IMG/VR virus record: IMGVR_UViG_2740892523_000006
Strand: one strand, 5' to 3'
From: a virus
Taxonomy: Duplodnaviria > Heunggongvirae > Uroviricota > Caudoviricetes
Length of the DNA: 55,003 nt
Shown piece by piece: positions 4,253 through 42,848 of the stretch. The notes below the pieces were generated by a model, which ran no database searches, was not told where the DNA came from, and worked only from the letters and a program-made list of their open reading frames with translations. Within the stretch, counting starts at the first letter, position 1, and every line of letters begins with the position of its first letter. A program made the translations under genes and the position numbers.

Positions 4253-4364
4253 ATAACCTTACCTTTGATATTGACTACATAATTCGTTATCGGGTAAAAA
4301 CATCGAAGCGACTGATAACCACTCCTTCGGGAGTATTTTTATTTTCCTTTATGGGTTAGGTAGC

Positions 4365-4400: not shown

Positions 4401-6438
4401 ATTCTGTTACCGCTTTTTTCACTTCCACCACAATGCTGTCAATCAGCACCGGGTAAGTTGCATTTTTTGTGATATCCGTTACGCGGAGTTTGTCCACCGG
4501 GAAAGTTCCTACTGGTGACTGCGTCAGGGTAAACGCGGCACCATCCTGACCATCAATAACCGGAATAACCTGAAGGCTGTTATTTCCTGCAAAACGGAAG
4601 GCCAGCGTATGCCATTCATTATCAAATGCACCAAAGGTTCCCAGTTTCTGGTTATTTGTTGCCACTTTTGCATTGTGGTACATCACATTCAGGTCTTTTG
4701 CGTCTGTCTGGATGTAGAACGATGCCAGCAGATTATTCCCTGCATCCCCTGTCAGGGTGACACCCTGCGGCAGAGAGGAAACCGGCCAGTAAAGCCCCAT
4801 GACATACTGGTTTGCCACCAGGTCGCCAGGTACTTTAAAACGACAACTGATTAAACCACCATTTTTCAGCAGTTCAGCACCAGTACCGGCATCATGATCC
4901 AGATACCAAGATGATTTACCTGTTTCCTTGGTCAGTTTCATTGCCTTACCACCTGTGCCTCCTGCATCACTGATAATTTCAGCTTTACCGCCAGCCGGCT
5001 CCCAGCCCTGGGCTTTCAGATTTCCTTCTGACTCACTGACACGATAAGACAGCAGTGTTGTGGTTACTGCTTCAGTTTCTGAAGGTGACGGCACTGGTGC
5101 TTCAGTTTCAGAAGATGGAACATCGGCTTTTACTGTGGTTCGCCCCGCATGAGTCAGAACTGCCGTGGCCAGACGGTCGGAAATAATCCCACGACGTGCC
5201 CATGAACTGAAATGGCTGGCCCGGTCCGCAGATGTCCAGGTGGCGGCACTGTTACGCCACGTTGAGCCGTAATAACCAATGGATTCAATATCCGGGTCTT
5301 CTGCCGGATTGTTGGTGGGTACATTCGCGTCATTTTCATCTGTCATTAATGGAACGAAATGAATGTTTTTATCTGTTTTGTTTTTGTAGCCGCCATAGAT
5401 TGCCTGGTATGCCGGTTCATTTTTCTGTTTCCAGAAATACGTGGTATCGCCACAAATCCACGGAACGCCAGCAGCACTGCCACCGGTACACTGTTCCGCC
5501 TGTTCAGCCAGGTCTGCGCGGAATTTTTCCACCATCGCCAGAAACAGCGCGGAATGCTCCGTCGGCTTCGCATCAATATCAAACTCGCCCTGCATCCACA
5601 CCACAGCAAGCAGGCGGTTTTTCGGGTTCTTCGCCAGTGCCGCTTTTGTCCGGCTGATTAAGTCCTTATACAGCGGCTTATCCACACCCCAGCGGGCTGA
5701 GTCCTCTGAAGCACCCGTGCTGTCACTGTACGTGCCGTCAGCACCCGCCGTGAATGCAGAACCACCACGGCAGCAGGGAACCAGCAGAATCCCCGCATCT
5801 GCCGGAATAAACGGCAGCAGTTTTTTGGCAATGTGAAGCCCCTGACCCACGGTGCCATATTGCCCTTTAGCCACATCCGCTTTCGGGTGATTTTTTCCAC
5901 TCATATCCTGCACATCATGCAGACAGTGGTCGGCCAGAATGATGTCGTTATACTGACAGGCTTTACCTCCCGGCGTGACTGTACTGCGACGGGCTAACTG
6001 CATAATACGCGGTTCGGGGCGGTCATATGTCTCCGGCAGTGGCAGACCTTCACCGTAAGCCATACCGTTTGACTGACCAGCAAGAACCACCACGTAATAC
6101 CAGGAAGGGGAGCTGGAAGCAGTTTCATTTCCTGACGGACGGGTATGTGTTTCAGCATTATCCCAGTCTGACGGTTCAGCAGTACCGGCAACATCAGCAC
6201 TTAACGGAATGACCGCACCAATACCCGCTCCGGTAATTTCCACACTCGGATCACCGGATACTGGCCTTACCCACAGGCAATCCCGTGTATTAAAACTGAT
6301 GAGACAGTCAGCAAATGTCATTCCTCCTTTTGTTTCGGCCGGAGGAAAGGGAGCCTCAAGAAATGCCGCTGTACCACCGGAAACTTTAACAGTAAAGTTT
6401 CCGGGCATTGATGATAGTTGAACCCATTTGGACGTCAT
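4399..6438 (-). CDS. SASA/SGNH-family carbohydrate O-acetylesterase with C-terminal lectin-like domain (NanS-p-like cargo gene)
   Basis: 679 aa; VVVLAGQSNGMAYGEG matches the GQSN esterase motif; SETEAPVPSPSETEAV linker; beta-rich C-terminal ~230 aa; no signal peptide. Confidence 0.65.
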   Translation of the reverse strand: MTSKWVQLSSMPGNFTVKVSGGTAAFLEAPFPPAETKGGMTFADCLISFNTRDCLWVRPVSGDPSVEITGAGIGAVIPLSADVAGTAEPSDWDNAETHTRPSGNETASSSPSWYYVVVLAGQSNGMAYGEGLPLPETYDRPEPRIMQLARRSTVTPGGKACQYNDIILADHCLHDVQDMSGKNHPKADVAKGQYGTVGQGLHIAKKLLPFIPADAGILLVPCCRGGSAFTAGADGTYSDSTGASEDSARWGVDKPLYKDLISRTKAALAKNPKNRLLAVVWMQGEFDIDAKPTEHSALFLAMVEKFRADLAEQAEQCTGGSAAGVPWICGDTTYFWKQKNEPAYQAIYGGYKNKTDKNIHFVPLMTDENDANVPTNNPAEDPDIESIGYYGSTWRNSAATWTSADRASHFSSWARRGIISDRLATAVLTHAGRTTVKADVPSSETEAPVPSPSETEAVTTTLLSYRVSESEGNLKAQGWEPAGGKAEIISDAGGTGGKAMKLTKETGKSSWYLDHDAGTGAELLKNGGLISCRFKVPGDLVANQYVMGLYWPVSSLPQGVTLTGDAGNNLLASFYIQTDAKDLNVMYHNAKVATNNQKLGTFGAFDNEWHTLAFRFAGNNSLQVIPVIDGQDGAAFTLTQSPVGTFPVDKLRVTDITKNATYPVLIDSIVVEVKKAVTE

Positions 6439-6537: not shown

Positions 6538-7098
6538 TTATTTTTCCGAAACGCTCGCAGGATAATAACGATAAAGGGTTGAAAGGCCGATATCAAAAAT
6601 AAGTGCCACCTGTCTTCGACTGACACCCCCGGCCAGTAAACGCCCGACCTGCTCGTATTGTTCCTGCGTGAGACGACGGGGTCTGCCGCCGGTTCGTCCC
6701 CTTTCACGGGCAGCTGCAAGACCAGCCCGTGTCCGTTCGACAATTAATTCACGCTCCATTTCTGCCAGCGCACCCATTATGTGAAAAAAGAAGCGCCCCA
6801 TGGGGGTTGACGTATCAATGTTGTCAGTAAGACTACGAAAATTTATCCCCTGTTGCTGTAATTCATCTGTCAGCGCAACAAGGTGGCGCATACTGCGCCC
6901 CAGCCTGTCCAGTTTCCAGACCATCAGTGTGTCACCGGGTTTTAGTTTCTTCAGTGCCCGCTTCAGTCCCGGCCGCTGTGTCGTTTTACCACTCATTTTA
7001 TCTTCAAAAATCTGCTCACATCCTGCACATTCCAGCGCATTTCTTTGTAAACCTGTGTTCTGGTCATTTGTTGATACGCGTATATAGCCAATCAGCAT
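6538..7098 (-). CDS. gin: Gin/Pin-family serine DNA invertase
   Basis: 186 aa, MLIGYIRVSTNDQNTGLQ...GINFRSLTDNIDTST...C-terminal HTH; resolvase/invertase N-terminal serine signature; adjacent to invertible segment. Confidence 0.9.
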   Translation of the reverse strand: MLIGYIRVSTNDQNTGLQRNALECAGCEQIFEDKMSGKTTQRPGLKRALKKLKPGDTLMVWKLDRLGRSMRHLVALTDELQQQGINFRSLTDNIDTSTPMGRFFFHIMGALAEMERELIVERTRAGLAAARERGRTGGRPRRLTQEQYEQVGRLLAGGVSRRQVALIFDIGLSTLYRYYPASVSEK

Positions 7099-23123: not shown

Positions 23124-23244
23124 ATTGCCTCCGCATAAAGGATGAATATAAAATAAACAGGCGGTCAGTGTACGCTTAACTGGTAAAGTCGGTGCCTGCC
23201 TCCGGGTGGATCATGTATGCGGGTTCAACCCCCGCCACTGACCG

Positions 23245-28992: not shown

Positions 28993-29200
28993 GACGGGCC
29001 TCCATGATGTTCTGGCAGTTCACACAACGGATGGCATCCGGCACAGCAACAAGACGTGCGGCGGGGATCTCTCCGCCACAGTCCGCGCAGACACGTCTGC
29101 CCGGAGCATCCATTGCCCGGCGCTTACGTGTCAGCCGGTTACAAAGGGCGCGTTCTGATCCCCGCTCCATCACAGCCTGAGCACGATCTGAATCATCCAT
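28973..29200 (-). CDS. TraR/DksA-family C4 zinc-finger protein
   Basis: CADCGGEIPAARL...AIRCVNCQ four-Cys motif; start likely MDDSDRAQ at 29200. Confidence 0.55.
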   Translation of the reverse strand: MDDSDRAQAVMERGSERALCNRLTRKRRAMDAPGRRVCADCGGEIPAARLVAVPDAIRCVNCQNIMEARHVGQHR

Positions 29201-29210
29201 ACCTTTTTCC

Positions 29211-29582
29211 TTACTTCGTCTTTCCTGCCGGAACAGCAGGCGTTCCGGCCATATCAGTAAATTCATGTTGTCGCCGCGCCTCCAGACGACGAATACTGGC
29301 CTTGTCCACGTTGCAGTTCTTGATCACCGCCAGCAGTTGCAGGTTGTAAGTGACCGATGCCCCAAACGTGAACGGCTCCGGCGCAGGAGGGACCAGGCAG
29401 TCAGCCAGCCATTCAGCGGGGATCGGCACCGGCTTCACAGGCACGTATTTCACAGACGGCCCGGCGCACCCGATCAGCCACATCATCAGGAACAGGGGCA
29501 GAGGCCGCAGGCACTGCCGCCAGCGACCGGCGGACAACGCTCTGCTGCCCCTCGCTGTGCTGAATGTTCTGTTGTTTTTCAT
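29211..29582 (-). CDS. Outer-membrane spanin lipoprotein (Rz1-like), overlapping i-spanin
   Basis: MKNNRTF...LPLFLMMWLIGCAGP signal peptide with lipobox; Pro-rich mature part; overlaps 29413-29763 in another frame. Confidence 0.5.
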   Translation of the reverse strand: MKNNRTFSTARGSRALSAGRWRQCLRPLPLFLMMWLIGCAGPSVKYVPVKPVPIPAEWLADCLVPPAPEPFTFGASVTYNLQLLAVIKNCNVDKASIRRLEARRQHEFTDMAGTPAVPAGKTK

Positions 29583-29763
29583 TCGTGGCCGCCTCACTGA
29601 TTTGTGAAATGAGTTGCAGGGTGTGCTGCTGATTTGCCAGCACCTGACGCGCCTCATCCCGCTCACGCACAAGCACCTGATTATTGTCTTCAAGGCGCTG
29701 CGTCTTCTGGTGCATTCCCCATATAGCGGCAACCAGTACAGCGATAATCCCCAGCGCCGCCAT
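29413..29763 (-). CDS. Inner-membrane spanin (Rz-like); start uncertain
   Basis: N-terminal TM MAALGIIAVLVAAIWG then coiled coil; ORF track start at 29934 would overlap endolysin. Confidence 0.45.
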   Translation of the reverse strand: MAALGIIAVLVAAIWGMHQKTQRLEDNNQVLVRERDEARQVLANQQHTLQLISQISEAATNEKQQNIQHSEGQQSVVRRSLAAVPAASAPVPDDVADRVRRAVCEIRACEAGADPR

Positions 29764-29875
29764 GCACGCCCCGGCAATCAGGGCCGGTAAGGCATTATTC
29801 ACCGCAGCCACAGGACACCCCGTAACAGCAGTACCGCACACAGCAGCGCTATCATGAGCGGTCGCCAGAAGCGGT

Positions 29876-30376
29876 TCAGACTTTCGGCAAGTCGTAGCGA
29901 CATAACCATTCATCCGCCGAACGGCGGGCCTCAAGGCCGGGGAGTTTCACCCCCTTTGAATAAATCCAGCGGATATACTGCTTACAGGACGCGGGCATCT
30001 GCCCGGCATTGATCAGGCGCAGAAGCGTGGAGTTGCGAAAGTTCGTTTCACCGGCCCAGAAGATCCACGAAGCCAGCGCCACCGTCTGACCACGGGTAAG
30101 CGGCACCTGAACACGCCGATCAATGGCCGCAAAGGCCCATTTCATGTCCTTTTCCAGTAGTTCCAGGCATTCTTCATCTGTCAGGGTCATACCCGGTTTC
30201 ACATCCGGGCCGGTATGGCCGTAACAGATGGTGGGTGTACCGGTGGGATCGATATACGTGGAGTTTTCTTTCCCTTCCCAGTAACCGGTGTAATGCGTGG
30301 CAATCGTGAACGTCCCGGCACCGGCCAGAACAAGGGCAATCAGCTTTTTACGCAGTGGTGCGGGGAGTTTTGGCAT
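29876..30376 (-). CDS. SAR endolysin (lysozyme, Mu lys-like)
   Basis: 166 aa; N-terminal hydrophobic LIALVLAGAGTFTIA then lysozyme-like region sharing the TICYGHTG/CHGHTG and [18 protein letters not shown] motifs with the lambdoid endolysin at 53557. Confidence 0.8.
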   Translation of the reverse strand: MPKLPAPLRKKLIALVLAGAGTFTIATHYTGYWEGKENSTYIDPTGTPTICYGHTGPDVKPGMTLTDEECLELLEKDMKWAFAAIDRRVQVPLTRGQTVALASWIFWAGETNFRNSTLLRLINAGQMPASCKQYIRWIYSKGVKLPGLEARRSADEWLCRYDLPKV

Positions 30377-30447
30377 TGTTACGCTGTCTCATGATGTTCT
30401 CTGAGTCAGCGTAACGGTGAAGGAGAGGCGGCAGGCTTTGCGGAATA

Positions 30448-30873
30448 TCAGAAAAGTGGCGGTTGCGTTCTTACCAGATGCAGACGGCGCTGTTCGCGTA
30501 TGACGGTATAAATCTGGGTTTCTGACATCCGGTAATGGCGGCGAAGGGATTCAATTTTCTCGCCCCGGTCCCAGCGCGAAAATATCTCATTGTTTCGCAG
30601 CTCGGCAAAGAGAGATTCCCCGACCGGCAGGTAATAACCCCGTCCGCCCATATAGGCTGCCTGAGCCGCAGCCACCTTGCGTGCCAGTTTACCGGCCAGT
30701 ACCGGCTCAATCCCCTGACGCTGAAGTTCTGCGCCGGTGACTTCAACCAGTTCTGACAGGGTCCGCGGCCAGTTCTTTTTGAGAACATCATCAGGGATGT
30801 CATCAAGGCGGTCGATAAGGGCGTGCAGTTGCTCACTGTCACCACCAAACATGCTCATCTGAGTTTCTGCCAT
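30448..30873 (-). CDS. Mor/C-family transcriptional activator
   Basis: 141 aa, C-terminal HTH (RRHYRMSETQIYTVIREQRR); sits between gemA-like gene and lys. Confidence 0.65.
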   Translation of the reverse strand: MAETQMSMFGGDSEQLHALIDRLDDIPDDVLKKNWPRTLSELVEVTGAELQRQGIEPVLAGKLARKVAAAQAAYMGGRGYYLPVGESLFAELRNNEIFSRWDRGEKIESLRRHYRMSETQIYTVIREQRRLHLVRTQPPLF

Positions 30874-30942
30874 ATCAGCCTCCGGTTCTCGCGTTCCCGG
30901 TAAGTTTAAAATAAAAATCCCGCGTTGTGGCGGGATTTGGGG

Positions 30943-31452
30943 TTAACGGGGAAGTGATTTTTCATACTGCCTGCAAACGGCGTCATACCCCATCAGCGTG
31001 CGTTCGGGCATTCCCATCGCGGCCAGCATTTTGCGGCGGTGCCATCGCTTGAGACGCTCCAGCACATCTGAGGCCAGGGCGGGGTGTTGCTCCAGCCACT
31101 GCCAGTTTGCCACACCTTCGCCGCCGTTCTGCGCGGCCGTCTGCGATTTCACCCAGCGGTTAAGAGCGGTTTCCGCACCATCAGAGATAAAGCCCTGCCG
31201 GTGCATCACTTTCCAGATGGCGCGAATTTTGGCGGTCACCGTACCCGGTTTTAAGGCCCGGTTAACCGGTTTCTGACGCACTTTAAAACCGCGTTTTTTG
31301 AAAACATCCAGCACGCGGGATAACTCACCGGGTGACATATCCCGGCAGCTGGTTTTGCCGGTGGCTGCCAGTAGTACGAATGTGTAGGTCTCATCATCTA
31401 GGGCAAGCTCGCGCTTTGCCACATGAATAGCGGATATCAGTTTCCCTCTCAT
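30943..31452 (-). CDS. GemA-like regulatory protein
   Basis: 169 aa, MRGKLISAIHVAKRELALDDETY... recalled as typical GemA/DUF1018 start; position upstream of Mor/C. Confidence 0.6.
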   Translation of the reverse strand: MRGKLISAIHVAKRELALDDETYTFVLLAATGKTSCRDMSPGELSRVLDVFKKRGFKVRQKPVNRALKPGTVTAKIRAIWKVMHRQGFISDGAETALNRWVKSQTAAQNGGEGVANWQWLEQHPALASDVLERLKRWHRRKMLAAMGMPERTLMGYDAVCRQYEKSLPR

Positions 31453-31745
31453 GCTGTATCAACACTCCTGCTGATATGATAGATATTACTTTCCCGATCG
31501 AGCTGAACCCGATACTCCGGAGGAATCACAAAAATATTAAAACCATCATCAGTTTTTATTCTTGAGTAGTATTCCCCCTTATGATATCTGGCAAGTGCAT
31601 TAATCAGAGAAGTCGCCGCCAGCCCAATCAGGTATTTTTTATGAAAAATACTGATAACTTTCCGGCACAGCCATCGTGTAATGACGAATGCACCGAAAAA
31701 CGATGTGATATATAAACACCAGAACAACTGCGAACTACTGTCCAT
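31449..31745 (-). CDS. Hypothetical membrane protein (low-GC islet)
   Basis: 98 aa, N-terminal TM; AT-rich codon usage. Confidence 0.45.
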   Translation of the reverse strand: MDSSSQLFWCLYITSFFGAFVITRWLCRKVISIFHKKYLIGLAATSLINALARYHKGEYYSRIKTDDGFNIFVIPPEYRVQLDRESNIYHISRSVDTA

Positions 31746-31932
31746 TATCTTTCTCCTTATTCAGTCTTCTGCGACATTCGGCACAGTCATCAGGGCTTTC
31801 AAATGTATCCGGCTCGCGATTATGAGCCAGATATAACCACCGCCTACATATACTGATATTATCGCCAGTTTTAAAAAAATGATGCTTCTTAGCCATCAGA
31901 GGGCGCGCCCATCCAGCGGGTAGACTATTCAT
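31735..31932 (-). CDS. Hypothetical Cys-containing small protein (low-GC islet)
   Basis: 65 aa, C...CAEC spacing suggestive of zinc binding. Confidence 0.4.
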   Translation of the reverse strand: MNSLPAGWARPLMAKKHHFFKTGDNISICRRWLYLAHNREPDTFESPDDCAECRRRLNKEKDNGQ

Positions 31933-32299
31933 TTGCTTTATCCTCCATACTGGACAAAATCATCTGTATTAATGTCGGGCGTGGAGATATACGCATTTCA
32001 TTAAGCGTCTGAAGGGCAGCAACAGCTGCCTGTTTATCGGTGCCTTTGGCAATTTCCGCAAGAGAATGCACAATCCATAACGGACTTAACGCCACGACTG
32101 AATCCAGAATCATGTCATCCATAATAATTTCTGACACATCCCGCTTATCACATTCCTTATCCATAAAAGAAACGATTTTTTCCACATCTTCCGGTTTCAT
32201 GCCTCCGGCGATAAGAAATTTGCGATACTCATAAGACGATCTTAATTCAATACTCATATTCATCTCCTGTAACTCTGACAAGGACGTGATTTTTCTCAT
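31925..32299 (-). CDS. Hypothetical protein (low-GC islet)
   Basis: 124 aa; no family recognised. Confidence 0.45.
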   Translation of the reverse strand: MRKITSLSELQEMNMSIELRSSYEYRKFLIAGGMKPEDVEKIVSFMDKECDKRDVSEIIMDDMILDSVVALSPLWIVHSLAEIAKGTDKQAAVAALQTLNEMRISPRPTLIQMILSSMEDKANE

Positions 32300-32481
32300 T
32301 TATGTTTTCCAGTAATACGGATATATATGTCGATAAGAAGATTCATAATAAACAGGAAGAGCGACATCCTGATAAAGAACCAAATATCTGGCATCATGGA
32401 CAGGTTTCCTGTAATCGCAAATATAAAACCAACCCCCAACACCGGAACGAAAATTGCGAAAAATACAAGTCTCTTTATCAT
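32296..32481 (-). CDS. Hypothetical small two-TM membrane protein (low-GC islet)
   Basis: 61 aa, two hydrophobic helices. Confidence 0.4.
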   Translation of the reverse strand: MIKRLVFFAIFVPVLGVGFIFAITGNLSMMPDIWFFIRMSLFLFIMNLLIDIYIRITGKHK

Positions 32482-33029
32482 GGCGTTAACTCCCGTAATA
32501 CAGCGTCCTCGGCAGTCCGGCGATGGTGATAAATAAAATTCACCGTACTCTCGGATAATTCAAATTTCTCGCCTATTTCCCGGAAGGTAAGACGTCGTGG
32601 TGATTCAGCATCCCGTAATTCACGAATAAGATGAACATCATCGTCAGGTATACGGGTGAAGGGCAGCAATTCTCCGTATTTTTTCATGCTTACGCCAATA
32701 TATCGCGCCCGATTGTGGACAGAATCCCGGTCTCGCCCCAGATATTCTCCTATTTGCTTACCGGTCATCGTTCTGGCATTTTTTCGGATAAATTTATCTT
32801 CATCATGTTTAAATCTTGGACGTTTGCATTTGAGCAACTCCGGGTAAGTACCGCGTAATAAAACAATCCGGTTATGTACACCCCAGAAACTTCTTTTTAC
32901 CCTGACAGCAATATCCTTAACCGGGGTGGATGGATAAAGCGCAATCAGCAGCGCATCTTCTTCAGGTGTCCACGCACGGACATGAGCAGGTGCCTGACCT
33001 TTTCGCCCCATGGGTTGTAAAATCATCAT
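32478..33029 (-). CDS. Hypothetical DNA-binding protein with repeated HTH-like segments
   Basis: 183 aa; WTPEEDALLIALY (SANT-like), TGKQIGEYLGRDRDSVHNR and LTFREIGEKFELSESTV HTH-like stretches. Confidence 0.5.
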   Translation of the reverse strand: MMILQPMGRKGQAPAHVRAWTPEEDALLIALYPSTPVKDIAVRVKRSFWGVHNRIVLLRGTYPELLKCKRPRFKHDEDKFIRKNARTMTGKQIGEYLGRDRDSVHNRARYIGVSMKKYGELLPFTRIPDDDVHLIRELRDAESPRRLTFREIGEKFELSESTVNFIYHHRRTAEDAVLRELTP

Positions 33030-33032
33030 ACA

Positions 33033-33548
33033 TCACCCCCTGACTCGCTTTTCAGCAGCATAAAACTCATCAGACAGAATTTCGGTCATTTTCTGATTTG
33101 CGGGTTTTACGCCGCACTCAAGGTAAATCACATCGTCAACGCAGAACCACTTCACAGGGCCAAACATGATTGCCGAGAAATCAATACCCAGCCAGAACAA
33201 CAGTGCATCGGTTCTGGCATACGTGACGGGCGAATATTCACGCCACAGACTGTTAAGTTCGTCAGAGGCAACGCGCAGGGCTTTGGGAATACGTGATGTG
33301 CGCGGTGTGCAGCTCCAGCCATTCGACGCAGTCGGTTTTCGCCATAAGTCGCGATGAAAAGGATATTTGTCATCCATAAAGCGCAGCCCTTTAAAACAAA
33401 AGCCACTGATACCGGATACAAATACCGACCGGCACGCAACATTCAGCACGGCCTCAAGGCGTTTTGCCTCATCCTTAACTTTCTGGCAGTCCTGCTGATA
33501 TTTTTGCCACGCGGCCAGCGCGGAAGGGTTTGATGTTTTAAAGAACAT
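33033..33548 (-). CDS. Hypothetical early protein
   Basis: 171 aa; synteny only. Confidence 0.45.
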   Translation of the reverse strand: MFFKTSNPSALAAWQKYQQDCQKVKDEAKRLEAVLNVACRSVFVSGISGFCFKGLRFMDDKYPFHRDLWRKPTASNGWSCTPRTSRIPKALRVASDELNSLWREYSPVTYARTDALLFWLGIDFSAIMFGPVKWFCVDDVIYLECGVKPANQKMTEILSDEFYAAEKRVRG

Positions 33549-34081
33549 TACGCCACCTCCGCAGATATCCCAGCAGGCGCGGCCGTCCGGTCAACAATCA
33601 GGTAACGCAGAACGCGCGAGGTGATATTCCAGCCGCTTAAACCGCAGATAATGACACCCAGGCGTATGTCGATATACGCCATCACAAACTGGGGCACGCC
33701 TTCTTTCATGGCCTGCTCATCAACTTCAGCCACCACATAAACGGTTTCACAGGTCAGAACGCCCTGAGCAAATTCCCACGCCATTGACGGAATATCATGC
33801 CCCTCAATCCACGGCAGGGATTTTCTGAAGCTGCACCACTGAACATCATCAGCCGCACCTTCCTGGCTGCATTTGCGACGAACCGGCTGCACCGGGCGGG
33901 GACGCGGAATATCATAAAAACCGTTACATTCCGTCAGCACCCCGGCATCGACCGCATCACGCAGAAAATAAACCATCGAGGATGGCGGCATATTCATTTT
34001 TTCAGCCAGAATGCCGCAGGTCAGACGCCCGTAAATACTCAGCCAGTTTTTAACCCCTTCAAGCACTTTTGCATCAATCAT
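33548..34081 (-). CDS. Hypothetical early protein
   Basis: 177 aa; synteny only. Confidence 0.45.
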   Translation of the reverse strand: MIDAKVLEGVKNWLSIYGRLTCGILAEKMNMPPSSMVYFLRDAVDAGVLTECNGFYDIPRPRPVQPVRRKCSQEGAADDVQWCSFRKSLPWIEGHDIPSMAWEFAQGVLTCETVYVVAEVDEQAMKEGVPQFVMAYIDIRLGVIICGLSGWNITSRVLRYLIVDRTAAPAGISAEVA

Positions 34082-34084
34082 GAA

Positions 34085-34627
34085 TTATTCCTCCGTCAGC
34101 GCCACATATTCAGAATGTTTAATCTCCTGGCATTCTTCAGGAATACCCCCTTTTATTTCCCTGCCATAAGCGCCTACTTTAAACACCACGCACAGGGCAT
34201 CACGGGAGAGCGACGGGGTCCACCAGGAGTCCATGTTAAACATGGAGGGGATTCTCATTACCCCCAGCTTTTCACAGAGCCAGACAAGGAAATCAGGACG
34301 CTTTCTTAACTCGCGTTCAGCGGCTTCAATCATTGCGGCAATCGCCGGTCCTTCAGGGCATGACTCATCAGGTCTGGCAATAAAGCACGGTCCGTCCCCG
34401 ACAAAAGCCACATCATCGCGCTTACGCCAGCCCGCAGGCAGAGCACCAGAAAAATAAAACTCACTGATTACGTCCATGGCAAACGGCTTTAAGCGCAATC
34501 CGGCAGCGCCTGTATTTTTCAGTAATGCCCGAAGAATACTGTTGCGTAGCGGTAAAACAGTCTGTTGATATTTGGTGAAATATTTATTTGTCTGCACACG
34601 GTCTAATTTGAAATAAAAATATGCCAT
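34085..34627 (-). CDS. Hypothetical early protein
   Basis: 180 aa; synteny only. Confidence 0.45.
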   Translation of the reverse strand: MAYFYFKLDRVQTNKYFTKYQQTVLPLRNSILRALLKNTGAAGLRLKPFAMDVISEFYFSGALPAGWRKRDDVAFVGDGPCFIARPDESCPEGPAIAAMIEAAERELRKRPDFLVWLCEKLGVMRIPSMFNMDSWWTPSLSRDALCVVFKVGAYGREIKGGIPEECQEIKHSEYVALTEE

Positions 34628-34724
34628 ATATCCTGTTCCTTATTTTCAGTTTACAGGCGCAGGCAGTCCCCTGACGCGAGCGCCATAATTAAAACGAAGT
34701 GATATTTAATTGATTAATGCGGTG

Positions 34725-35255
34725 TTATTTATTCAGTCCAGCGTCCTGTTCAAAAGGCTCGACATAAAAACTTTCAGCGCCTTTATTCACCTTAATACCG
34801 GCAATCCCTTTCACCGCATCCGGCTCCGCCAGGACCGCTTCCTTGTTCACTTCCTCTTTCGTGCGGATAAAACGCTCAAGGCCCATACGGCGCAGCATTT
34901 CAATCACACCTTCCACATCACGACTGACGCTGCATGATGGATTCCCCAGTCGCCATGACACCGTTCCGGTGGTCAGATTGGCAGTTTTGGTTTTGCCGCC
35001 GTTCGTCAGCTCATCTCGGTTGGTTTTGCACCAGTCCTGAATCCCCTTAAAAAGCACTTTGATTTCTTTTTTAAGGTTTTCAATCTGCGGCGTATAACGG
35101 GCGGTGATTTCTGCCACTTCATCATTCATCGCCGTTTCCAGCCGCAGCGCCTCTCGCTGAATATCGCCCAGGGTGCGGATATCGCGGCTGACCTCTTCAC
35201 GGGTCTGCGGTGCCGCCTCTGCTGCGGCCTTTAATTTTGTAACGCGTTTTGCCAT
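34725..35255 (-). CDS. gam: Host-nuclease inhibitor Gam (Mu Gam-like)
   Basis: 176 aa; RLETAMNDEVAEIT...WCKTNRDELTNGGKTKTANLTTGTVSWR...FIRTKEEVNKEA matches recalled Mu Gam. Confidence 0.85.
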   Translation of the reverse strand: MAKRVTKLKAAAEAAPQTREEVSRDIRTLGDIQREALRLETAMNDEVAEITARYTPQIENLKKEIKVLFKGIQDWCKTNRDELTNGGKTKTANLTTGTVSWRLGNPSCSVSRDVEGVIEMLRRMGLERFIRTKEEVNKEAVLAEPDAVKGIAGIKVNKGAESFYVEPFEQDAGLNK

Positions 35256-35266
35256 TTTGTTTTTCC

Positions 35267-35560
35267 TTATTGCAGTGTGCCTGATGCTTTATGCACGCGG
35301 TGGCGTTTAATGATGGCATCCGCCCCAAAAGCCTGTACAGATGCCTGAAATTCCGCTGAGAGAAACTGAATAATTTCAGGACTGTGATACTGGAGAATAC
35401 TTGCATAAACGTCACAGAGTGACGTCGGCCTGTTATTCGTATCACGTTCTGTTTTTACATCCACACCAATCTTTTCATGCACTTCAACACAGTCATTGCC
35501 TGCCGGTTTTTCGTCATGCGAAACATGCTTAAATTCAAAAATAACGCGTACTTTGCTCAT
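35267..35560 (-). CDS. Hypothetical small protein, paralog of 35565-35837
   Basis: Starts MSKVRVIFEFKHV; neighbour starts MSKVVRIIFEYKEHV. Confidence 0.45.
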   Translation of the reverse strand: MSKVRVIFEFKHVSHDEKPAGNDCVEVHEKIGVDVKTERDTNNRPTSLCDVYASILQYHSPEIIQFLSAEFQASVQAFGADAIIKRHRVHKASGTLQ

Positions 35561-35564
35561 GGAA

Positions 35565-35837
35565 TTACCCCTGCTGATTAAATTCATTACCTTTAATAAC
35601 CCCGGAACGCATGCTCATATCTTTCATGAGCGCACTGGCTTTCATTGCCACAAGTTCAGCAAAGTCTCTGCTTTCCGCGAGCATAACCACCCCAAAAATC
35701 ATGGCGGGTCCATCACCCTTCTGCTTTATCCCGGTTGAACGTATGTCCAGACTTACCCCCATGCGCACTGTTCCATCAGCGTTTTTATGGATAACGTGCT
35801 CCTTGTATTCGAAAATAATGCGTACGACTTTACTCAT
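35565..35837 (-). CDS. Hypothetical small protein, paralog of 35267-35560
   Basis: 90 aa; shared N-terminal motif with downstream gene. Confidence 0.45.
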   Translation of the reverse strand: MSKVVRIIFEYKEHVIHKNADGTVRMGVSLDIRSTGIKQKGDGPAMIFGVVMLAESRDFAELVAMKASALMKDMSMRSGVIKGNEFNQQG

Positions 35838-36115
35838 CCTCTGGTCCTCGTTCTGTTTGGATAACTGACCCGGCGTCTGACCTCACGGCAGAACCGAATC
35901 ATGGCATTAAAGGCTTCTTCCTCCGTCACCGCTTCCGGTATCCCCGGAACCAGTAACTGCTCCTGTTCATCACGTCCATGACGCGCCATAACCTCAATCA
36001 CATGCCGTACCGTGGCAGGCTTTCCGGCAACTATCGGCAATGCACCTTCCGGCAGGACGTAACCAAACTCAATAAGACCACTCGACCACGCCCATGCAAT
36101 GAGATTTTTTTTCAC
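35834..36115 (-). CDS. Hypothetical early protein
   Basis: 93 aa; synteny. Confidence 0.4.
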   Translation of the reverse strand: MKKNLIAWAWSSGLIEFGYVLPEGALPIVAGKPATVRHVIEVMARHGRDEQEQLLVPGIPEAVTEEEAFNAMIRFCREVRRRVSYPNRTRTRG

Positions 36116-36116
36116 C

Positions 36117-36383
36117 TCACACCTCCCAGTAAACCGTGCAGCCGCTGATGCGGGTGGCCTTCACACGGCGGCGCAGGCCGTTGGTCTGTATGGTGATTTC
36201 AATTTCACCGGTTCCCTGCACGTTGCCTACCGGCGGCGTGGTTTTCAGTGCAAAACGTTGCGGATAGCGCTTACTGCGTTCCAGTACCGCACCGGCAAGT
36301 TCGGTCAGACGGCGCGCGCTGTTCAGGGAGTCGAATAAATTCATTTTGTTACCGCAGGATTGCATATTCATATAACACCTCAT
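36117..36383 (-). CDS. Hypothetical early protein (kil region)
   Basis: 88 aa; synteny. Confidence 0.4.
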   Translation of the reverse strand: MRCYMNMQSCGNKMNLFDSLNSARRLTELAGAVLERSKRYPQRFALKTTPPVGNVQGTGEIEITIQTNGLRRRVKATRISGCTVYWEV

Positions 36384-36611
36384 TTAGCTGACTTGTTTCG
36401 CACCAACAGAACGGCATATTCCGCTGTAAACGTCTGTCGCACCTTCTCGATCAAGTCCGGCAGATATCACCATTCGTGTGCGGTCATTAAATTCAAAAAG
36501 TAAATCGCCACATTCTTTATTTTCGGCCAGTGAAATCACCTTCACGTTATCGAAATTAACCAGGTAAAAGCGTCCGTAAATATCAGGAATATTAAATACC
36601 GCCATAATCAC
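36384..36611 (-). CDS. Hypothetical early protein (kil region)
   Basis: 75 aa directly after B. Confidence 0.4.
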   Translation of the reverse strand: MIMAVFNIPDIYGRFYLVNFDNVKVISLAENKECGDLLFEFNDRTRMVISAGLDREGATDVYSGICRSVGAKQVS

Positions 36612-37540
36612 ACCTGTGAGAGTAATTCAGGGTTGGTATAAACCTCTTTAAAGGCCGCATTAATATGTTTTTCTGTCAGCGCCGCGCCTTCACCGCTGGC
36701 GGTGAGCCACGCCTGGTTAAGCGTATGTGTCAGAACGCGTAACGCTCCCGGCTTTTCAGCGATAGCCTGCATGACGGCCAGCTCGGCCTCACCACTGATC
36801 CCCCACGCCCTGGCAATGGCCAGCACATCCGCCTTTTTGGCCTTGCGAAGTTGTTTTGTACGGGCAAGACGGCTGAACAGGCGCGATAAATCATCAAAGG
36901 TGCGGCGTCCACCTTTAAACAATCCGCGCGGGTTACCAATAAGCACCATCCCGATCCCCGTGGCGTCCTGAATTGCCCGGAGTTGCTCCAGACCGTCAAT
37001 ACCAAGATGATCCGCCTCATCCACAATAACCAGTCCACGCGTTCCCATCAGGCGACGGCGGATGGCGCGGGATAATGCCCCTTTGTTCGCGCGGGTGTAA
37101 TCAATCCCCAGCGCATCGGCCAGCTCCAGCAGACACTCCGTGACGCTGGAGTGCGCGGGTGACAGGGTGATCATCCAGGTGTTTGGTTGCTCCTGGCAGT
37201 AATTACGGGCAGTGGCCGTTTTACCCACACCCGGTACGCCCACAATAACGTTAATACAGCCCATCAGACGAACCGCCTGAAACAGTGCGCGCAGCTCCTG
37301 GACTGTCTGCGTTTCCACAAACTGCGGCGGTTCCGGCAGTGCGCTTTGTTTATTCCAGTTCTCATACCAGGAACGCAGGGAAGCAGCCACAGCAGCGTTA
37401 TCGCCTTTATATTTTCCCTTACGGAAAGCCGATAATGTGCCGTCGGAAATTCCCGCCTCTCTGGCGATGGCATACTGCGTCAGTACGCCGCCATCAATAA
37501 GTTCATCAATGGTCTTGATTACATCGTTAATATCAGTCAT
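36608..37540 (-). CDS. B: Transposition ATPase B (MuB-like AAA+)
   Basis: 310 aa; Walker A GVPGVGKT, DEADHLG, KKADVLAIARAWGISGE closely parallel recalled MuB. Confidence 0.9.
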   Translation of the reverse strand: MTDINDVIKTIDELIDGGVLTQYAIAREAGISDGTLSAFRKGKYKGDNAAVAASLRSWYENWNKQSALPEPPQFVETQTVQELRALFQAVRLMGCINVIVGVPGVGKTATARNYCQEQPNTWMITLSPAHSSVTECLLELADALGIDYTRANKGALSRAIRRRLMGTRGLVIVDEADHLGIDGLEQLRAIQDATGIGMVLIGNPRGLFKGGRRTFDDLSRLFSRLARTKQLRKAKKADVLAIARAWGISGEAELAVMQAIAEKPGALRVLTHTLNQAWLTASGEGAALTEKHINAAFKEVYTNPELLSQV

Positions 37541-37611
37541 ATTATTAACCTCTCATTTGATACCTTGTTTAATCAAATAACCTGAGTCGCCGCTCGGGTT
37601 ATTTTTTTATT

Positions 37612-39702
37612 TCAGGCCAGCGGGTCATTTTCTTTTAATTTCGCTTCCAGCAACTGCAATCCCCGCTGGAAATTACGCTCGTATTCTTCATCAGGTTCAT
37701 CGTCAGCGACCGGTTGCTGAACGGTCACCGTATTACCCACAGGGCGGTATATGTTTTCCAGCCAGGGCTCCTGCGGCTTGTGCTCCAGCACGTTGACAAC
37801 CTCATCCTCGGCATCACGGATTTTTTCCTCTGCGCGTTTACGCATGCCTTTAAGGCGTTGCTGCTGTTTGTAGTATTCCGCGCTAACCGGGAAGGCTTCG
37901 CGTTTATTACCGTCCCATACCGCCTCGCAAATCACGCTGCCATCCAGGCGACGTACGGTAATTCGTTCGGCATCATGAATGTCATAGCTGATAAGCACCT
38001 TACGACCATGCTCGTCACGCAGCTCGGGCGCGTAGTAAATATTATTCAGCCAGCGTATTTCACAGCGTCTTACAGGGCGTTCCACCATCGGCCGGAACAT
38101 ATCCCGCAGCTCAACATCGGACAGCCATTCAATTTCCGTGTCCTCTTCCGCCAGGCGTTTTTTTCTGAACTCCGCCGGGCTGTAATGCTTGCCGTTCGGC
38201 TTCACCGGTAATTCATCGTGCGGCCGGTTGTTGTACCACTCAACACCGTCACGAATGGCATCAATCAGTTCAGACCAGGACGGTAAATCACGCATCGCTG
38301 ACTGCTGCCGGGCGTTCAGCCGTTTGCCCTGTTGCAGGGCAGTAAATGCCGAGCGTAAATCGCGGTTGGTTTTGCGTAACGTCTCGCGATCTGCACCTTT
38401 CCCGAAATAGGTGCGGTATTTACGGGCTATGCGCATCGGTAATGTGCGGTTAAGCCGTTCGATAATGCCTCGTCCCTGCGGATTACCGGCAATCCCGGTC
38501 GGGTGATTAATCCCCAGTCGCGGCAGTATCCCCACAACCTCCTTATCCAGGATGTCGGCGGTTTCCCCGGAGCCGTTATCCGAGTAATACAGAAACGGTT
38601 TGCCGTGATGGCGAATGCCGTGCTGTATGGCACCGGCTACGGCGAAAACATTTTCAGCCAGGTCAAGGCTCCAGCCCACCACAAAGCGCGTGCCACCGTC
38701 GATAACAAAGGTCACTTCCGGTGCAAATGGCCGACCGTGAACCGGGTGTGCGCATTTCAGCTTCATGCCGTGACCGTCACCAATCCAGACATAATTCACC
38801 GGCATTCTGGACCAGTCGCGGCGCGTGAATCCCTCAAGCTGGCGGTATTCACTGCCGGTCACCCGGCCTTTTTGTTTCACCACTTCCGGCAGTTTCTTCA
38901 TTGCGCGGCGAATGGTGTCATAAGACGGCATGATATCGAGCATATAAGGCTCATCAGCGTGCCGGTGCTGCCATTCAGCGACAAAATCCTCGTAAGCCTC
39001 GGTCATTGGTCGGCCGTTTGACTGGCGATACTGCGCCAGAAATTCGGGCAGCCAGTTAATATCTTCGGCTTTTATTTCCTGGCGCTTACCCGGTGCCAGT
39101 AAAAGCAGGCGTTCAGCGGCGTTCTGCGCCTTGTTAAAGGCCGCAATCCAGCGTTTCAGCGTTATTTCACTCAACGCACGGCTGTTTCCCTTTTTGGCGT
39201 TCGCCGTCTCAACCATTGCCACAATGCGCTCGTCCAGTTGCGAACGTGCCAGGTTGTCAACGATAAACCGGATAGCTTTCGCACAGCTGAAACCGGGTTG
39301 TTGCGCGACTTTCATCACTTCGCTGACGATCGCGATTCGTGCATCAGCCACCTGGCGCTGGTTTTCAGTCAGGGCATTAAGGCGTTCAACCATCAGTTGT
39401 GGTGATCCGCGATATGCCTCCACCGCATCAACCACGGCAGGCGAGCGTCTGGCCTTTGTCACCACCGGAGCCGGTGATTCATCAGCTTTTTGCGTCATCA
39501 GTTGAAGGGCATAACGTTCACGCAATACTTGTTGCGCGCCAGAAGGCAAACAATCGATATTAAATTCGATTGCTTTTGTCCCCTTACGTTTGCGTAACAT
39601 GGCTGCATTTCCCGCAGCTGCTTTTGTGAGTCGATGGCGAATGTTATGTTCCATCATTGGTAAATCAGGAAGACCAACACATTCTTTTGCTGTTACCCAC
39701 AT
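37612..39702 (-). CDS. A: DDE transposase A (MuA-like)
   Basis: 696 aa; N-terminus MWVTAKECVGLPDLP...KGTKAIEFN resembles MuA; followed by B. Confidence 0.9.
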   Translation of the reverse strand: MWVTAKECVGLPDLPMMEHNIRHRLTKAAAGNAAMLRKRKGTKAIEFNIDCLPSGAQQVLRERYALQLMTQKADESPAPVVTKARRSPAVVDAVEAYRGSPQLMVERLNALTENQRQVADARIAIVSEVMKVAQQPGFSCAKAIRFIVDNLARSQLDERIVAMVETANAKKGNSRALSEITLKRWIAAFNKAQNAAERLLLLAPGKRQEIKAEDINWLPEFLAQYRQSNGRPMTEAYEDFVAEWQHRHADEPYMLDIMPSYDTIRRAMKKLPEVVKQKGRVTGSEYRQLEGFTRRDWSRMPVNYVWIGDGHGMKLKCAHPVHGRPFAPEVTFVIDGGTRFVVGWSLDLAENVFAVAGAIQHGIRHHGKPFLYYSDNGSGETADILDKEVVGILPRLGINHPTGIAGNPQGRGIIERLNRTLPMRIARKYRTYFGKGADRETLRKTNRDLRSAFTALQQGKRLNARQQSAMRDLPSWSELIDAIRDGVEWYNNRPHDELPVKPNGKHYSPAEFRKKRLAEEDTEIEWLSDVELRDMFRPMVERPVRRCEIRWLNNIYYAPELRDEHGRKVLISYDIHDAERITVRRLDGSVICEAVWDGNKREAFPVSAEYYKQQQRLKGMRKRAEEKIRDAEDEVVNVLEHKPQEPWLENIYRPVGNTVTVQQPVADDEPDEEYERNFQRGLQLLEAKLKENDPLA

Positions 39703-39712
39703 ACATCCCCCA

Positions 39713-39979
39713 TCAAGCCACTTCTCTGGCGTCCACCTGGTATCTGCTGGGCCAGATTACAGCAGGTTCAACCCCTATTTTTTCGGCGATGGCGGCTTCG
39801 TATTTACGGCACTGGCGGTAAAACACATTGCGCATTGATCCGCTTTTTAATCCTAACTCCCTTTCCAGTTCAGGGAGGTCTGTGCCTTTGTTTTCAAGGG
39901 CTGCATATACCGCTTTAGCAGACCAGTCACACCCCTCTCGAACAAACAAATTATTCGATGCTTGTCTGGATACCCTCAT
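39713..39979 (-). CDS. ner: Ner-like DNA-binding regulator
   Basis: 88 aa; C-terminal VIWPSRYQ shared with recalled Mu Ner; divergent from repressor gene. Confidence 0.8.
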   Translation of the reverse strand: MRVSRQASNNLFVREGCDWSAKAVYAALENKGTDLPELERELGLKSGSMRNVFYRQCRKYEAAIAEKIGVEPAVIWPSRYQVDAREVA

Positions 39980-40135
39980 TGTGTGATCCTCTCATGTTTA
40001 CCTGAACCGATAATCAAAACCGGTTATCGATTTAGGTAAATCATAATCGCAAAATAATTCGATATCAACGGTTTTTTGCGAGCACATCGAAATTAAATGC
40101 GATGTTGATAATTTCTTTGTTTTATAGGGGGTTAT
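39980..40135. promoter_or_regulatory. Divergent early promoter/operator region between ner and repressor
   Basis: AT-rich; palindrome CGATAATCAAAACCGGTTATCG and further TCGATA/ATCGAA motifs. Confidence 0.5.
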
Positions 40136-40747
40136 ATGGATAAGGCAGAAAAAACCGTATCCAGTGCGGAACGGTTTATTGATATGGAAGGAATAAACCG
40201 ATTTTCAGAACGCTTAGCTATGGCTATGGGAAACATGACAAACGTCGAACTGGCGACCCTTTGTGGACTATCTGAAGCCACAGTAAGAAATTACAGGAAG
40301 GGGAAAAACTTCCCTCCTTTGGATAAACTGGCCTTAATAGCTAAAGCCTGTAATTGTTCACTCGAATGGTTGGCCACAGGCAAGAACGAAGATGAATGCG
40401 GAAAAATCGAAAACAATTGCGATTCAGGTTCGGGTATTGATCAGGCGCTTAGCTCTCTAAGCCCCCAAGAGAAGCAATTAATCCTTACATTCATCAGGCG
40501 AGAAGGTACTAACAACCTTGTCAGGCTGGCAGCAATGAATACATCTACAATCAGCCAGGATGCGGTAGAAAGCATCATTGATGCCTTGCCATTACGTCCC
40601 GTACTAAAAAATGCAATAAAGATAGGAATGGCGGGAAGTGAAGAAACAGACAAAGAGATTTTGCGCGTTATTGAGAAGTACAACTCGAGCAATAACGCCA
40701 CCCAGGAATCAGGGGCAGTGACAGTAAAGAAAAATGTTGTTGGTTAA
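40136..40747 (+). CDS. Prophage repressor (HTH XRE-type), in Mu c position
   Basis: 203 aa; HTH NVELATLCGLSEATVRNYRKGKNFP; divergent from ner-A-B operon. Confidence 0.75.
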   Translation: MDKAEKTVSSAERFIDMEGINRFSERLAMAMGNMTNVELATLCGLSEATVRNYRKGKNFPPLDKLALIAKACNCSLEWLATGKNEDECGKIENNCDSGSGIDQALSSLSPQEKQLILTFIRREGTNNLVRLAAMNTSTISQDAVESIIDALPLRPVLKNAIKIGMAGSEETDKEILRVIEKYNSSNNATQESGAVTVKKNVVG

Positions 40748-40919
40748 GCGCCATCGCTATCATGAGGTGGTGCTGTAAATACATATAGAGATCATATGAC
40801 TCATCCCAAGATAATCACGCTATTGAATAGTAATTCATGATGATTATCATACTGATTATAGTTAGATCGATTATGTGAGCATTTTGGCAGTTTGAAGATG
40901 TTTTGAAGAAGATTTTAAG

Positions 40920-41093
40920 GGTAAATTAGCAGTATCAAATGTGTCGCCGTTTTTTGATCTTTTGACTATTTGTTGAGCAGTCGGTATCAAAAAGAGTTTT
41001 CCGTCCGAAGTATACATCACCTGTTTTATTTCAGCATCTTACAGGTGATTTCACCTCCTTTCACTAAAACCCTTGTCGGTATCAAATGATTCA
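40920..41093. repeat. Mu-like left-end terminal repeats (putative transposase binding sites)
   Basis: On minus strand TGAATCATTTGATACCGAC at terminus (41093 downward), TTTTTGATACCGA ~100 bp in, ATTTGATACTG ~150 bp in; spaced like Mu L1-L3. Confidence 0.55.
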
Positions 41094-42848
41094 CCTGGTT
41101 ACATGATGTCGTGCTGCTTCCGTTTCATTCATCCGGTTCAGTGCAGCATTTTCAGCATTACGGCGTTTCTGTTGCTCCTGATAATTCCGCTCTGCCTGCT
41201 CTTTTGCATCCTGCAAATCCTTCTGGCGTTTTTTCTCCTGAAGATCGTTAAGACGCTGCTGATCGTATTCAACCTGAGAAGATGATGCCGTCCAGGGGAG
41301 TCTTTTCGCCCGCGACACTTTCTCCTGTAAAGCGGCAATCTGTTCATCCAGCGAGTCTTCACGACCAATATTCATGGCCGCATCCCAGAAACGACTCCAC
41401 AAATCAGACAGATACTTCAGCGTACTGCCAAGCGCATTGAGGTTATTATCAATATCCGCAGTACGCCGACCGGTTTCCTCTGCCAGTGCAGACATGGCTA
41501 TCCGTGCAGCATCACTGGACCGCCCCTGCTCCCCAAGGACGCGTATCTGCTCAAGCTGAGTGGCAGTAAGAAAATGCAGCTCATTGTCCAGAGCCTTCGC
41601 GGCATTTACAGGATCATCCTTCAGCCGCTTAAACTGATTTATGGTATCGCTGACCGACTGGCCAACCGATCGCTCCATCTGTGCGGCAGCTCTCGCCACC
41701 ATACCGATATCGTTTCCACGAAATGCACCACTCCCCACCACCTGAGCCAGCGCACCGGCTGCAGCATGTTGCGTGATACCATTCCCGGAAATAGCACGAC
41801 TGAGCGTCCACAGCTGCCCGGCAGTGACTCCGGCATAATGCCCCGTCAGCGACAGCTGGCGGTTAAATTCTTCCCCCTCCTTCTGACCGTCATACCAGGC
41901 TTTACCCAGACCATAGACAGCCGCGGCAATACCGCCAATAACCGCTCCTGGCATCATGCCTTTCGGTGACATCAGTGTGTCTATCCACCCGGCACGGTTA
42001 GCCAGCGTTATTCCGGATCCCCTCAGCGCACCTAAATTGCCGCGGGCCAGTTCACCTATCAGAACGCCTATCTCCTGACGGGCTGCTGCACTTTTCAGAC
42101 CCAGCGAATGCGTGGCTTTTCCTGCCTGCTCCATTTTGCGGATATACACTTCTGCAGCACTGCTTACCCCCAGCTGGGCAGCCTTAGCACGAAGCAACTC
42201 AGAAGAAGAAAGATTCTGGCGGGTTGCCTGCTCTTTAAGCTGACGGATAAACGCCACTTTCTGTCGGGTAGCCTCTTCCTCAGCCTGTGTAAGAACACGG
42301 GTTTTCGCCGTAACCTCAGAAATCAGCGCCAGATAATCCTGCTGACCAATCCCGCCACTGTTTCTGGCCTGTCGGATCTGTTGCTGAATACGCTGTAATT
42401 CCTGCAGCCCCGCACCGGCCTGTTTCACACTGTCAATCTGACGATAAAACGCAGCAGCCGCTTTATCCTGAGCCTCCGCCAGAGCCATGGCCTGCGCCTG
42501 TTCCTCGCGCATTTTCTGGCTCAGTGCCTCCATACGCTGGCGGGTTTGCTCCACCTCGCGGGCCATGCGTTCATGAGCCTGTGCGCTCTTCTCCACCGTC
42601 TGCGCATGGACGGATGCGGCTGTTGCAGCCGAAGAAGCCGCCTGCATTGTCTGCCGGGCGGCCTGAGTCTGACGCTCCATAAAACGCTGCATACGGGCAG
42701 AAGACCGTTCTGCATCGCTGGCTGCACCATTCAGAAGGTTTTTGATACGGGGAATTTCATTTTTAAACTCTGCCGCATCAATCCCCAAATCAATGACCAG
42801 GTTGGCTATCTGGTCCATAACGCACACCTCCGGAAATACCTTCCCCAA
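41091..42848 (-). pseudogene. H: Lambdoid tape measure protein H, N-terminal fragment, truncated at Mu-like insertion
   Basis: 585 aa; N-terminus MDQIANLVIDLGIDAAEFK resembles recalled lambda gpH start; stop codon TGA 41091-41093 coincides with first bases of Mu-like end. Confidence 0.75.

Follow-up and report, generated by a model that had tools for sequence, protein, structure and literature searches.

A low-GC islet of four small genes in the early operon of a Mu-like Escherichia coli prophage lies in a variable accessory-gene slot

The virus record IMGVR_UViG_2740892523_000006 is a 55,003-nucleotide stretch of DNA (hereafter the window) that carries a Mu-like prophage on its minus strand, and an earlier note made from its letters had drawn attention to an islet of four small open reading frames (ORFs) at positions 31449–32481 in the early region of that prophage. 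We find this observation to be correct and well beyond chance. The islet genes are accessory and not core, as had been suggested, but the proposal that they form a single acquired cassette is wrong, and the idea that they serve exclusion or abortive infection gains no positive support from the comparisons made here. The reading that we favor, and that we hold with moderate confidence, is that the islet forms the AT-richest portion of a hotspot for accessory genes within the early operon, and that its products are probably small modulators that bind host components.

The four ORFs are present on the minus strand at exactly these coordinates, between two anchors. The upstream anchor of the slot (minus strand, 32478–33029) encodes a 183-amino acid (aa) helix-turn-helix (HTH)/Myb-like DNA-binding protein, a D5-like regulator, with weak Pfam HTH matches, a phrog_323 match (E 6e-59) and 30% identity to Mu gp9/E8; it is itself variable, with 72% identity between prophage variants. 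The conserved downstream anchor is gemA (gp16 family; minus strand, 30943–31452; Pfam GemA E 9.5e-30; 43% identity to Mu GemA). Reading downstream from the HTH gene, the islet consists of o61 (32296–32481, 61 aa), o110 (31925–32257, 110 aa), o65 (31735–31932, 65 aa) and o98 (31449–31745, 98 aa), and the tight packing with overlapping stops and starts is real, extending into the conserved flanks: four of the five junctions in the chain from HTH gene to gemA overlap, by 4 nt (ATGA) between the HTH gene and o61, 8 nt between o110 and o65, 11 nt between o65 and o98, and again 4 nt (ATGA) between o98 and gemA. The sole gap, of 38 nt, separates o61 from o110 when the latter starts at 32257. The frame of this third ORF had been called as 124 aa (31925–32299), a length that does not stand. 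Since an AGGAG lies 6 nt upstream of the ATG at 32257, RefSeq and other gene callers use that start, the PHROG profile and the homolog in phage SfMu both begin there (residue 15 of the 124-aa form), and variants without o61 have no open frame for the 14-codon N-terminal extension, the gene most likely starts at 32257 and encodes 110 aa. A Shine-Dalgarno site precedes each of the four ORFs. All four are annotated as "hypothetical protein" in chromosomes of E. coli O157:H7 and other Shiga toxin-producing E. coli (STEC), to which the whole islet is 100% identical.

The islet is, as had been claimed, AT-richer than the surrounding prophage, and comparison of G+C content (GC) and of GC at third codon positions (GC3) with the flanks makes it a strong outlier. 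Its GC of 0.405 compares with a prophage mean of 0.548 (sd 0.045 in 1033-bp windows), and only 0.2% of such windows are equally low. Individual islet genes range from 0.355 to 0.449 in GC and from 0.40 to 0.43 in GC3, while gemA, mor and the lysozyme gene lie at 0.55–0.56 and 0.56–0.63, respectively. The boundary is sharp at the gemA start, where GC rises to 0.56, and gradual upstream, where the HTH gene has a GC of 0.46. The 1 kb upstream of gemA differs in GC from gemA by −0.158 here, as against −0.016 ± 0.032 (minimum −0.088) at 69 GemA loci from other species; because these loci show almost no offset, the low GC is not a general property of the position. We also note that the sole other equally AT-rich stretch of the window, at 39832–41210, comprises the c-type repressor gene (plus strand, 40136–40747) and the left end of the prophage.

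The placement in a Mu-like early region is likewise borne out, with homologs of gam, gp11 and gp12 on one side and gemA and mor on the other. The full order is gam (34725–35255), an extra 180-aa gene, homologs of Mu gp11 (67% identity) and gp12 (54%), the HTH gene, the islet, gemA and mor (30448–30873). Within this frame the gp12 homolog, the HTH gene and gemA are kept in all five E. coli variants compared, and between the HTH gene and gemA stand three to seven genes whose identity changes. In the window these are o61, o110, o65 and o98; in strain TW14588 they are genes for 103-aa and 116-aa proteins followed by o110, o65 and o98; in OkiPb01678 they are o61, genes for 75-, 103- and 116-aa proteins, o110, o65 and a second allele of o98. 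JE86-ST05 has genes for 109-aa and 116-aa proteins, a truncated o110 and a reverse-strand gene with a weak DUF2513 match below the Pfam cutoff, and 600029 has a gene for a 110-aa protein, a Mu gp14 homolog and a reverse-strand gene for a 79-aa protein. The opposite-strand genes lie just upstream of gemA (minus-strand positions 2862–3272 of the JE86-ST05 locus L007 and 2639–2878 of the 600029 locus L008, with gp16 of SfMu at 3188–3454, also minus strand, of locus L009), and expression from a repressed prophage is more plausible for them than for the islet genes.

The distribution of the four genes is unequal. Among 5426 complete E. coli genomes, the mor-to-gp11 prophage block occurs in 233, o110 together with o65 in 215 (92% of the prophages of this lineage), o61 in 109 (about 47% of the genomes carrying the prophage) and the C-terminal half of o98 allele A in 65; o110 and o65 are thus close to fixation in the lineage, with o61 and the o98 allele varying among its members. 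Outside it, SfMu carries only o110 of the four, between Mu13-like and Mu14-like genes and together with a reverse-strand gene, and Mu has no homolog of any of them. The Mu slot holds gp13 (60 aa, Cys-rich), gp14 and a 55-aa ORF, none of them related to the islet proteins, with a mildly poor GC of 0.455–0.48. By tblastn and profile search none of 80 GemA loci from other species carries any islet gene. Neither a composition like that of the neighbors nor homologs among the core genes of Mu-like phages was found: the islet is a GC outlier, and its genes, judging by where homologs occur, are not core genes of Mu-like phages. Of the proposed horizontally acquired cassette, then, the aberrant composition and non-core nature hold and the single unit does not, the genes being exchanged one by one and unequally spread. 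Acquisition as one cassette is rejected on the unequal census counts (215, 109 and 65), the ATGA overlaps with conserved flanks and the presence of o110 and o65 in 215 of the 233 prophages. Because the four genes differ in distribution and swap singly, the islet is, on this comparative evidence, a long-standing mosaic hotspot and not one recent insertion.

All four are real genes under purifying selection. Pairwise Nei-Gojobori estimates of the nonsynonymous to synonymous rate ratio (dN/dS) among six E. coli copies are 0.05–0.12 for o65, 0.07–0.25 for o110 and 0.15–0.48 for o61, with 0.17–0.19 between the two o98 alleles. Broken copies do occur: o65 is frameshifted in strain CI5 (positions 1487–1683 of locus L022), whose prophage is otherwise similar, and in JE86-ST05 o110 is truncated and o65 and o98 are replaced. 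The existence of such frameshifted, truncated or replaced copies argues that the islet genes are dispensable. A 56-aa frameshift variant of o65 (P0030) is also present in public assemblies. The shortness and low GC of the ORFs, the lack of a curated family match and these occasional damaged copies might be taken to mean decaying or spurious reading frames in AT-rich filler DNA, an explanation that we regard as very improbable and that the present data already contradict: dN/dS is well under 1 for all four, a Shine-Dalgarno site stands at each ORF, 6700 blocks of a public assembly collection list the identical o61 protein, o65 has distant homologs with invariant residues, and o110 has homologs of 37% identity in SfMu and Yersinia phages.

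The statement that none of the four matches a recognized family is upheld by scans of Pfam, NCBIfam and PADLOC, which gave no usable match for these proteins; PHROG families match all four, and every one of those PHROGs is of unknown function. The alternative occupants of the slot likewise yielded nothing usable in Pfam, NCBIfam and PADLOC. In PADLOC, specifically, none of the four islet proteins matches at E ≤ 1 and none of nine alternative occupants (from the E. coli variants, SfMu and Mu) at E ≤ 0.01.

The o65 protein is probably a zinc-binding member of a large unnamed phage family, to judge from its conserved motif, GW..P....K.H[YF]F......S.CG[RK]W ... D[DN]CxxC[RK][RK]. At E ≤ 1e-3 a profile of its enterobacterial homologs matched 807 clusters (50% identity), most of them free-standing 60–80-aa proteins. 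Among 148 representatives no more than 50% identical to one another, H18 is kept in 147 and C29, C50 and C53 in 145 each, and G7, W8, P11, K16, F20, S27 and W32 are also conserved. Because the four ligand-type residues are near-invariant and accompanied by this further conservation, the His-Cys-Cys-Cys set indicates a structural metal site, putatively for zinc. "Cys-rich", the earlier description, overstates a protein with three cysteines, but these are conserved together with H18. The AlphaFold2 (AF2) model (predicted local distance difference test score, pLDDT, of 78) has a basic C-terminal helix; searched by fold, it found no significant neighbor in the PDB, and its BFVD matches were uncharacterized phage proteins only. 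A PDB sequence search gave a marginal RING match and nothing more, and no described zinc-finger or zinc-ribbon family or fold was found to include o65. Longer family members comprise one weak DUF551 fusion and nothing else; a 621-aa match is scattered, with no stretch over threshold, and was taken as low-complexity. A look-up of the clusters returned no names. A longer PHROG profile had raised the possibility of an o65-o98 fusion, which is rejected: the enterobacterial homologs (56–72 aa) all stand alone, and the Salmonella copy has no o98 beside it.

Homologs of o65 occur well beyond Mu-like elements. By tblastn, 316 phage records contain them, 289 of these from Pseudomonas phages; the examples among the matches listed are all Pbunavirus genomes of about 62–67 kb, where the gene sits amid small early genes. 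Others lie in early operons of a Klebsiella phage and a Citrobacter element. In a Salmonella Mu-like prophage the o65 homolog sits directly upstream of gemA and overlaps its start, and o98 is absent. Pbunavirus phages are strictly lytic, and because o65 homologs occur in them a role for o65 in lytic growth is suggested; o65 may be a small zinc-stabilized domain useful to temperate and lytic phages alike.

The o110 protein is acidic, soluble and all-helical and matches phrog_1988 (E 5e-44). Its homologs in SfMu (gp14) and in Yersinia Mu-like phages are 37% identical, and in a search of 5.8 billion proteins all relatives with a source name come from E. coli; on this distribution o110 is apparently confined to Mu-like phages of enterobacteria. 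It has no Pfam match, although one relative at NCBI is labeled "HEAT repeat domain-containing", and residues 62–108 match designed helical-repeat proteins in a PDB sequence search (E 1.5e-8), possibly for compositional reasons. Its AF2 model, from a shallow alignment, has six helices and a pLDDT of 52, which is unreliable and too poor for a fold search. We suppose that o110 would act as a helical protein-binding module.

Two of the four had been described as membrane proteins, which holds for o61 and is borderline for o98. The o61 protein (gene GC 0.355; weak phrog_19804 match, E 1.3e-5) has two strong hydrophobic segments, with Kyte-Doolittle 19-residue means of 2.79 and 1.91, and basic residues at both ends (K3/R4 and R55..K59/K61), so that by the positive-inside rule it is predicted to be a two-helix membrane hairpin with both termini in the cytoplasm (N-in/C-in). 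It is known from Sp18-like Mu prophages only. A class II holin or pinholin was considered for o61 and rejected; a two-helix N-in/C-in protein fits, but its position in the early operon does not, since six genes and about 1.9 kb separate o61 from the lysozyme/spanin cluster downstream (lysis cassette, 29211–30376) and it is not beside the endolysin gene.

The o98 protein (phrog_17269, E 9e-66; homologs only from E. coli among the 5.8 billion proteins) has an N-terminal hydrophobic segment at about residues 7–23, with a mean of 1.43 in this allele and 1.82 in the other, followed by basic residues and then a domain of roughly 65 aa, and is probably anchored in the membrane by that segment. Its two alleles agree at 28 of the 33 N-terminal residues and at 22 of the remaining 65. 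Because dS between them is saturated (about 2) while the neighboring genes are identical, they are two ancient alleles that recombination has moved, with a breakpoint inside the gene. The two old forms of the soluble domain suggest alternative target specificities that recombination may swap.

As for expression, a strong hairpin with a T-run after gemA (minus strand, 30915–30938; 9-bp stem with 5 GC pairs and a T-rich tail) is the first terminator-like site met on the coding strand beyond the islet. It occupies a 70-bp gap between gemA and mor, genes that overlap in Mu, and expression of mor may accordingly differ here. Crude consensus scans of the minus strand found no promoter-like or terminator-like site inside 31449–32481 and no sigma-70-like site across 30300–35400. 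On infection or induction the early promoter would drive the islet genes, which would stay silent in the repressed lysogen. They would be dispensable for transposition and morphogenesis. No islet protein has the length or conservation to look like an enzyme, and each would most likely bind a component of the host or of a rival phage, o61 and o98 at the membrane and o110 and o65 in the cytoplasm; small size, absence of enzyme signatures, variability and composition all fit phage accessory genes. At the inner membrane, o61 and o98 may act on the envelope, on phage entry or on division, which could include exclusion during lytic growth.

Several points weigh against this picture of early-expressed, host-directed modulators. 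No homology assigns a function, since Pfam, NCBIfam, PADLOC and the PDB and viral fold searches with o65 are all empty, and the o110 model lacks the quality needed for a search. Since promoters were sought by crude consensus matching, expression in the lysogen is possible. The presence of o110 and o65 in 92% of lineage prophages fits a lineage-specific phage function equally well, and none of the four proteins is in the supplements of the published accessory-gene screen of Silas et al. We found no paper on these four genes.

The lineage-specific function just mentioned would have the islet proteins tune how the phage itself develops (its early-to-middle transcription, replication or immunity), with o65 as a putative nucleic-acid-binding zinc finger. 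For the islet as a whole we think it unlikely, and for o110 and o65 it is a serious rival given their near-fixation and their coupling to gemA. The semi-essential region of Mu itself is associated with comparable phenotypes that are poorly mapped (arm, cim, sot and lig). Retention of o110 and o65 in 215 of 233 lineage prophages under strong purifying selection speaks for a developmental role, as do their place directly upstream of, and translationally coupled to, gemA, the Salmonella Mu-like prophage in which an o65 homolog again overlaps the gemA start, and the basic C-terminal helix and conserved zinc motif of o65. Yet all four genes are missing from Mu and from 80 other elements with GemA, o65 relatives live in unrelated phages that lack Mu regulation, and one prophage that is otherwise similar has o65 as a pseudogene.

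Protection of the lysogen by superinfection exclusion or abortive infection, with o61 and o98 made by the prophage, would account for two small putatively membrane-located proteins in a variable AT-rich hotspot and for two old o98 alleles of the kind expected of a specificity determinant; the reverse-strand genes in slot variants, which resemble independently expressed morons, also point this way. We nevertheless consider it quite doubtful, as there are no PADLOC matches, the islet lies on the strand of the repressed early operon and is translationally coupled to it, a scan of that strand showed nothing promoter-like, and the o65 relatives in lytic Pbunavirus oppose lysogen protection, at least for o65. 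Taken together, the PADLOC and promoter nulls and the occurrence of o65 in lytic phages lean against a function expressed in the lysogen. The preferred reading of early, host-binding modulators could also be carried further, with o65 defining a large His-Cys-Cys-Cys family of early proteins, spread over temperate and lytic phages of Enterobacteriaceae and Pseudomonas, that generally inhibits a conserved host factor or immune component, and with o61 and the two-allele o98 as a new specificity-bearing device for exclusion or receptor masking during Mu-type lytic growth; this stronger version is speculative and, in our estimate, improbable.

By published description the host prophage is similar to Sp18, which is the Mu-like prophage found in O157 Sakai (PMC2669165), so that we refer to it as an Sp18-like Mu prophage of STEC; the published Sp18 papers hold no gene-level data on the islet. 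Its B and A transposition genes and late genes are also recognizable. The extra gene between gam and the gp11 homolog (minus strand, 34085–34627; 180 aa) has neither a Mu counterpart nor a Pfam match; its product is 39% identical to SfMu gp11, which carries a DUF5420 label there, and it is missing in the JE86-ST05 and 600029 variants, making this a second variable point of the early region. At the right end of the prophage, between the gin-type invertase gene (6538–7098) and mom (2280–3017), a minus-strand gene at 4399–6438 encodes a 679-aa protein with a SASA sialate-O-acetylesterase domain and DUF6645; GC is low across about 2000–4500, two unassigned plus-strand ORFs lie at 3286–4163, and the region of the 679-aa gene looks like a cargo insertion.

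Minus-strand pieces of a tape-measure gene flank both sides of the prophage (797–2287 and 41091–42848), one with a Tape_meas_lam_C/TMP_4 match and the other with a TMP_2 match, which suggests that transposition placed it within a tape-measure gene belonging to another prophage; strain NE 1092-2 has this prophage in ycjP instead. The left end is at 41103, where the sequence is TGTAACCAGG..., and a search for a 5-bp target-site duplication of the prophage did not find one. A tRNA-like element (23164–23243) lies on the plus strand, opposite to the late genes, between the virion-morphogenesis and minor-head genes; it scores 30.9 bits with the Rfam tRNA model (gathering score 29) and has the RefSeq label "tRNA-OTHER", although ARAGORN reports no tRNA across the entire window. 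An Rfam scan of 29000–42000 found no RNA family.

The prophage is common in STEC, and any phenotype of the islet, be it in host range, competition between phages or the envelope, would therefore concern many clinical and bovine isolates. Framed by fixed anchors, the alternative small genes of the slot form a compact collection that occurs in nature and is suited to swaps. The most transferable result is the o65 family, which is short, widespread, conserved and absent from Pfam, so that finding its function would annotate hundreds of phage genomes.

Among described systems, the islet compares most directly with its positional counterparts. Accessory regions have been defined as variable, GC-deviant stretches between conserved anchors (Silas et al., 10.1101/2023.04.06.535777), and the islet shares with them the conserved bounding genes, the varying content and the small GC-deviant genes: the anchors lie in the 233-genome block, five variants have five gene sets, and GC is 0.405 against 0.548. 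That definition is positional, however, and agreement with it tells nothing of mechanism. The semi-essential early region of Mu (kil, gam, E6/Mup07, gp13–gp15 and gemA), in which E6/Mup07 ("gnarl2") has a counter-defense phenotype (10.1101/2023.04.06.535777), has the same operon position and orientation as the islet, and its equivalent slot holds three small genes, of which one encodes a Cys-rich 60-aa protein. Mu differs in having no islet homologs and a slot that is mildly GC-poor, and the gp14 family is an alternative occupant in an E. coli variant.

Two of the islet proteins have individual counterparts. SfMu gp14 (102 aa), 37% identical to o110 over 92 residues, lies in the same slot upstream of gemA, but its neighbors are the Mu13-like and Mu14-like genes and not o61, o65 and o98, and it too is uncharacterized. 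The gp85 protein (ORF85) of Pseudomonas phage 14-1 is 45% identical to o65 over 55 residues, shares the GW..P, K.HFF, S.C..W and CxxC elements and, like o65, is stand-alone (about 69 aa) within a run of small genes; it differs in its host, in the lytic lifestyle of its phage and in a GC of 0.59, and is uncharacterized as well. We found no mention of gp85 in a published toxicity screen of 38 Pbunavirus ORFans. For o61 and o98, a search of the phage collection found no sequence similarity outside Mu-like elements. The Imm and Sp proteins of phage T4 are early membrane proteins that exclude superinfecting phage, and by analogy only they may be set beside o61 and o98, Imm as a small multi-helix membrane protein and Sp as an N-terminally anchored one of about 97 aa; both are early products of the lytic cycle. 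Measured against these systems, the islet is a typical block of uncharacterized phage genes and not a new kind of system.

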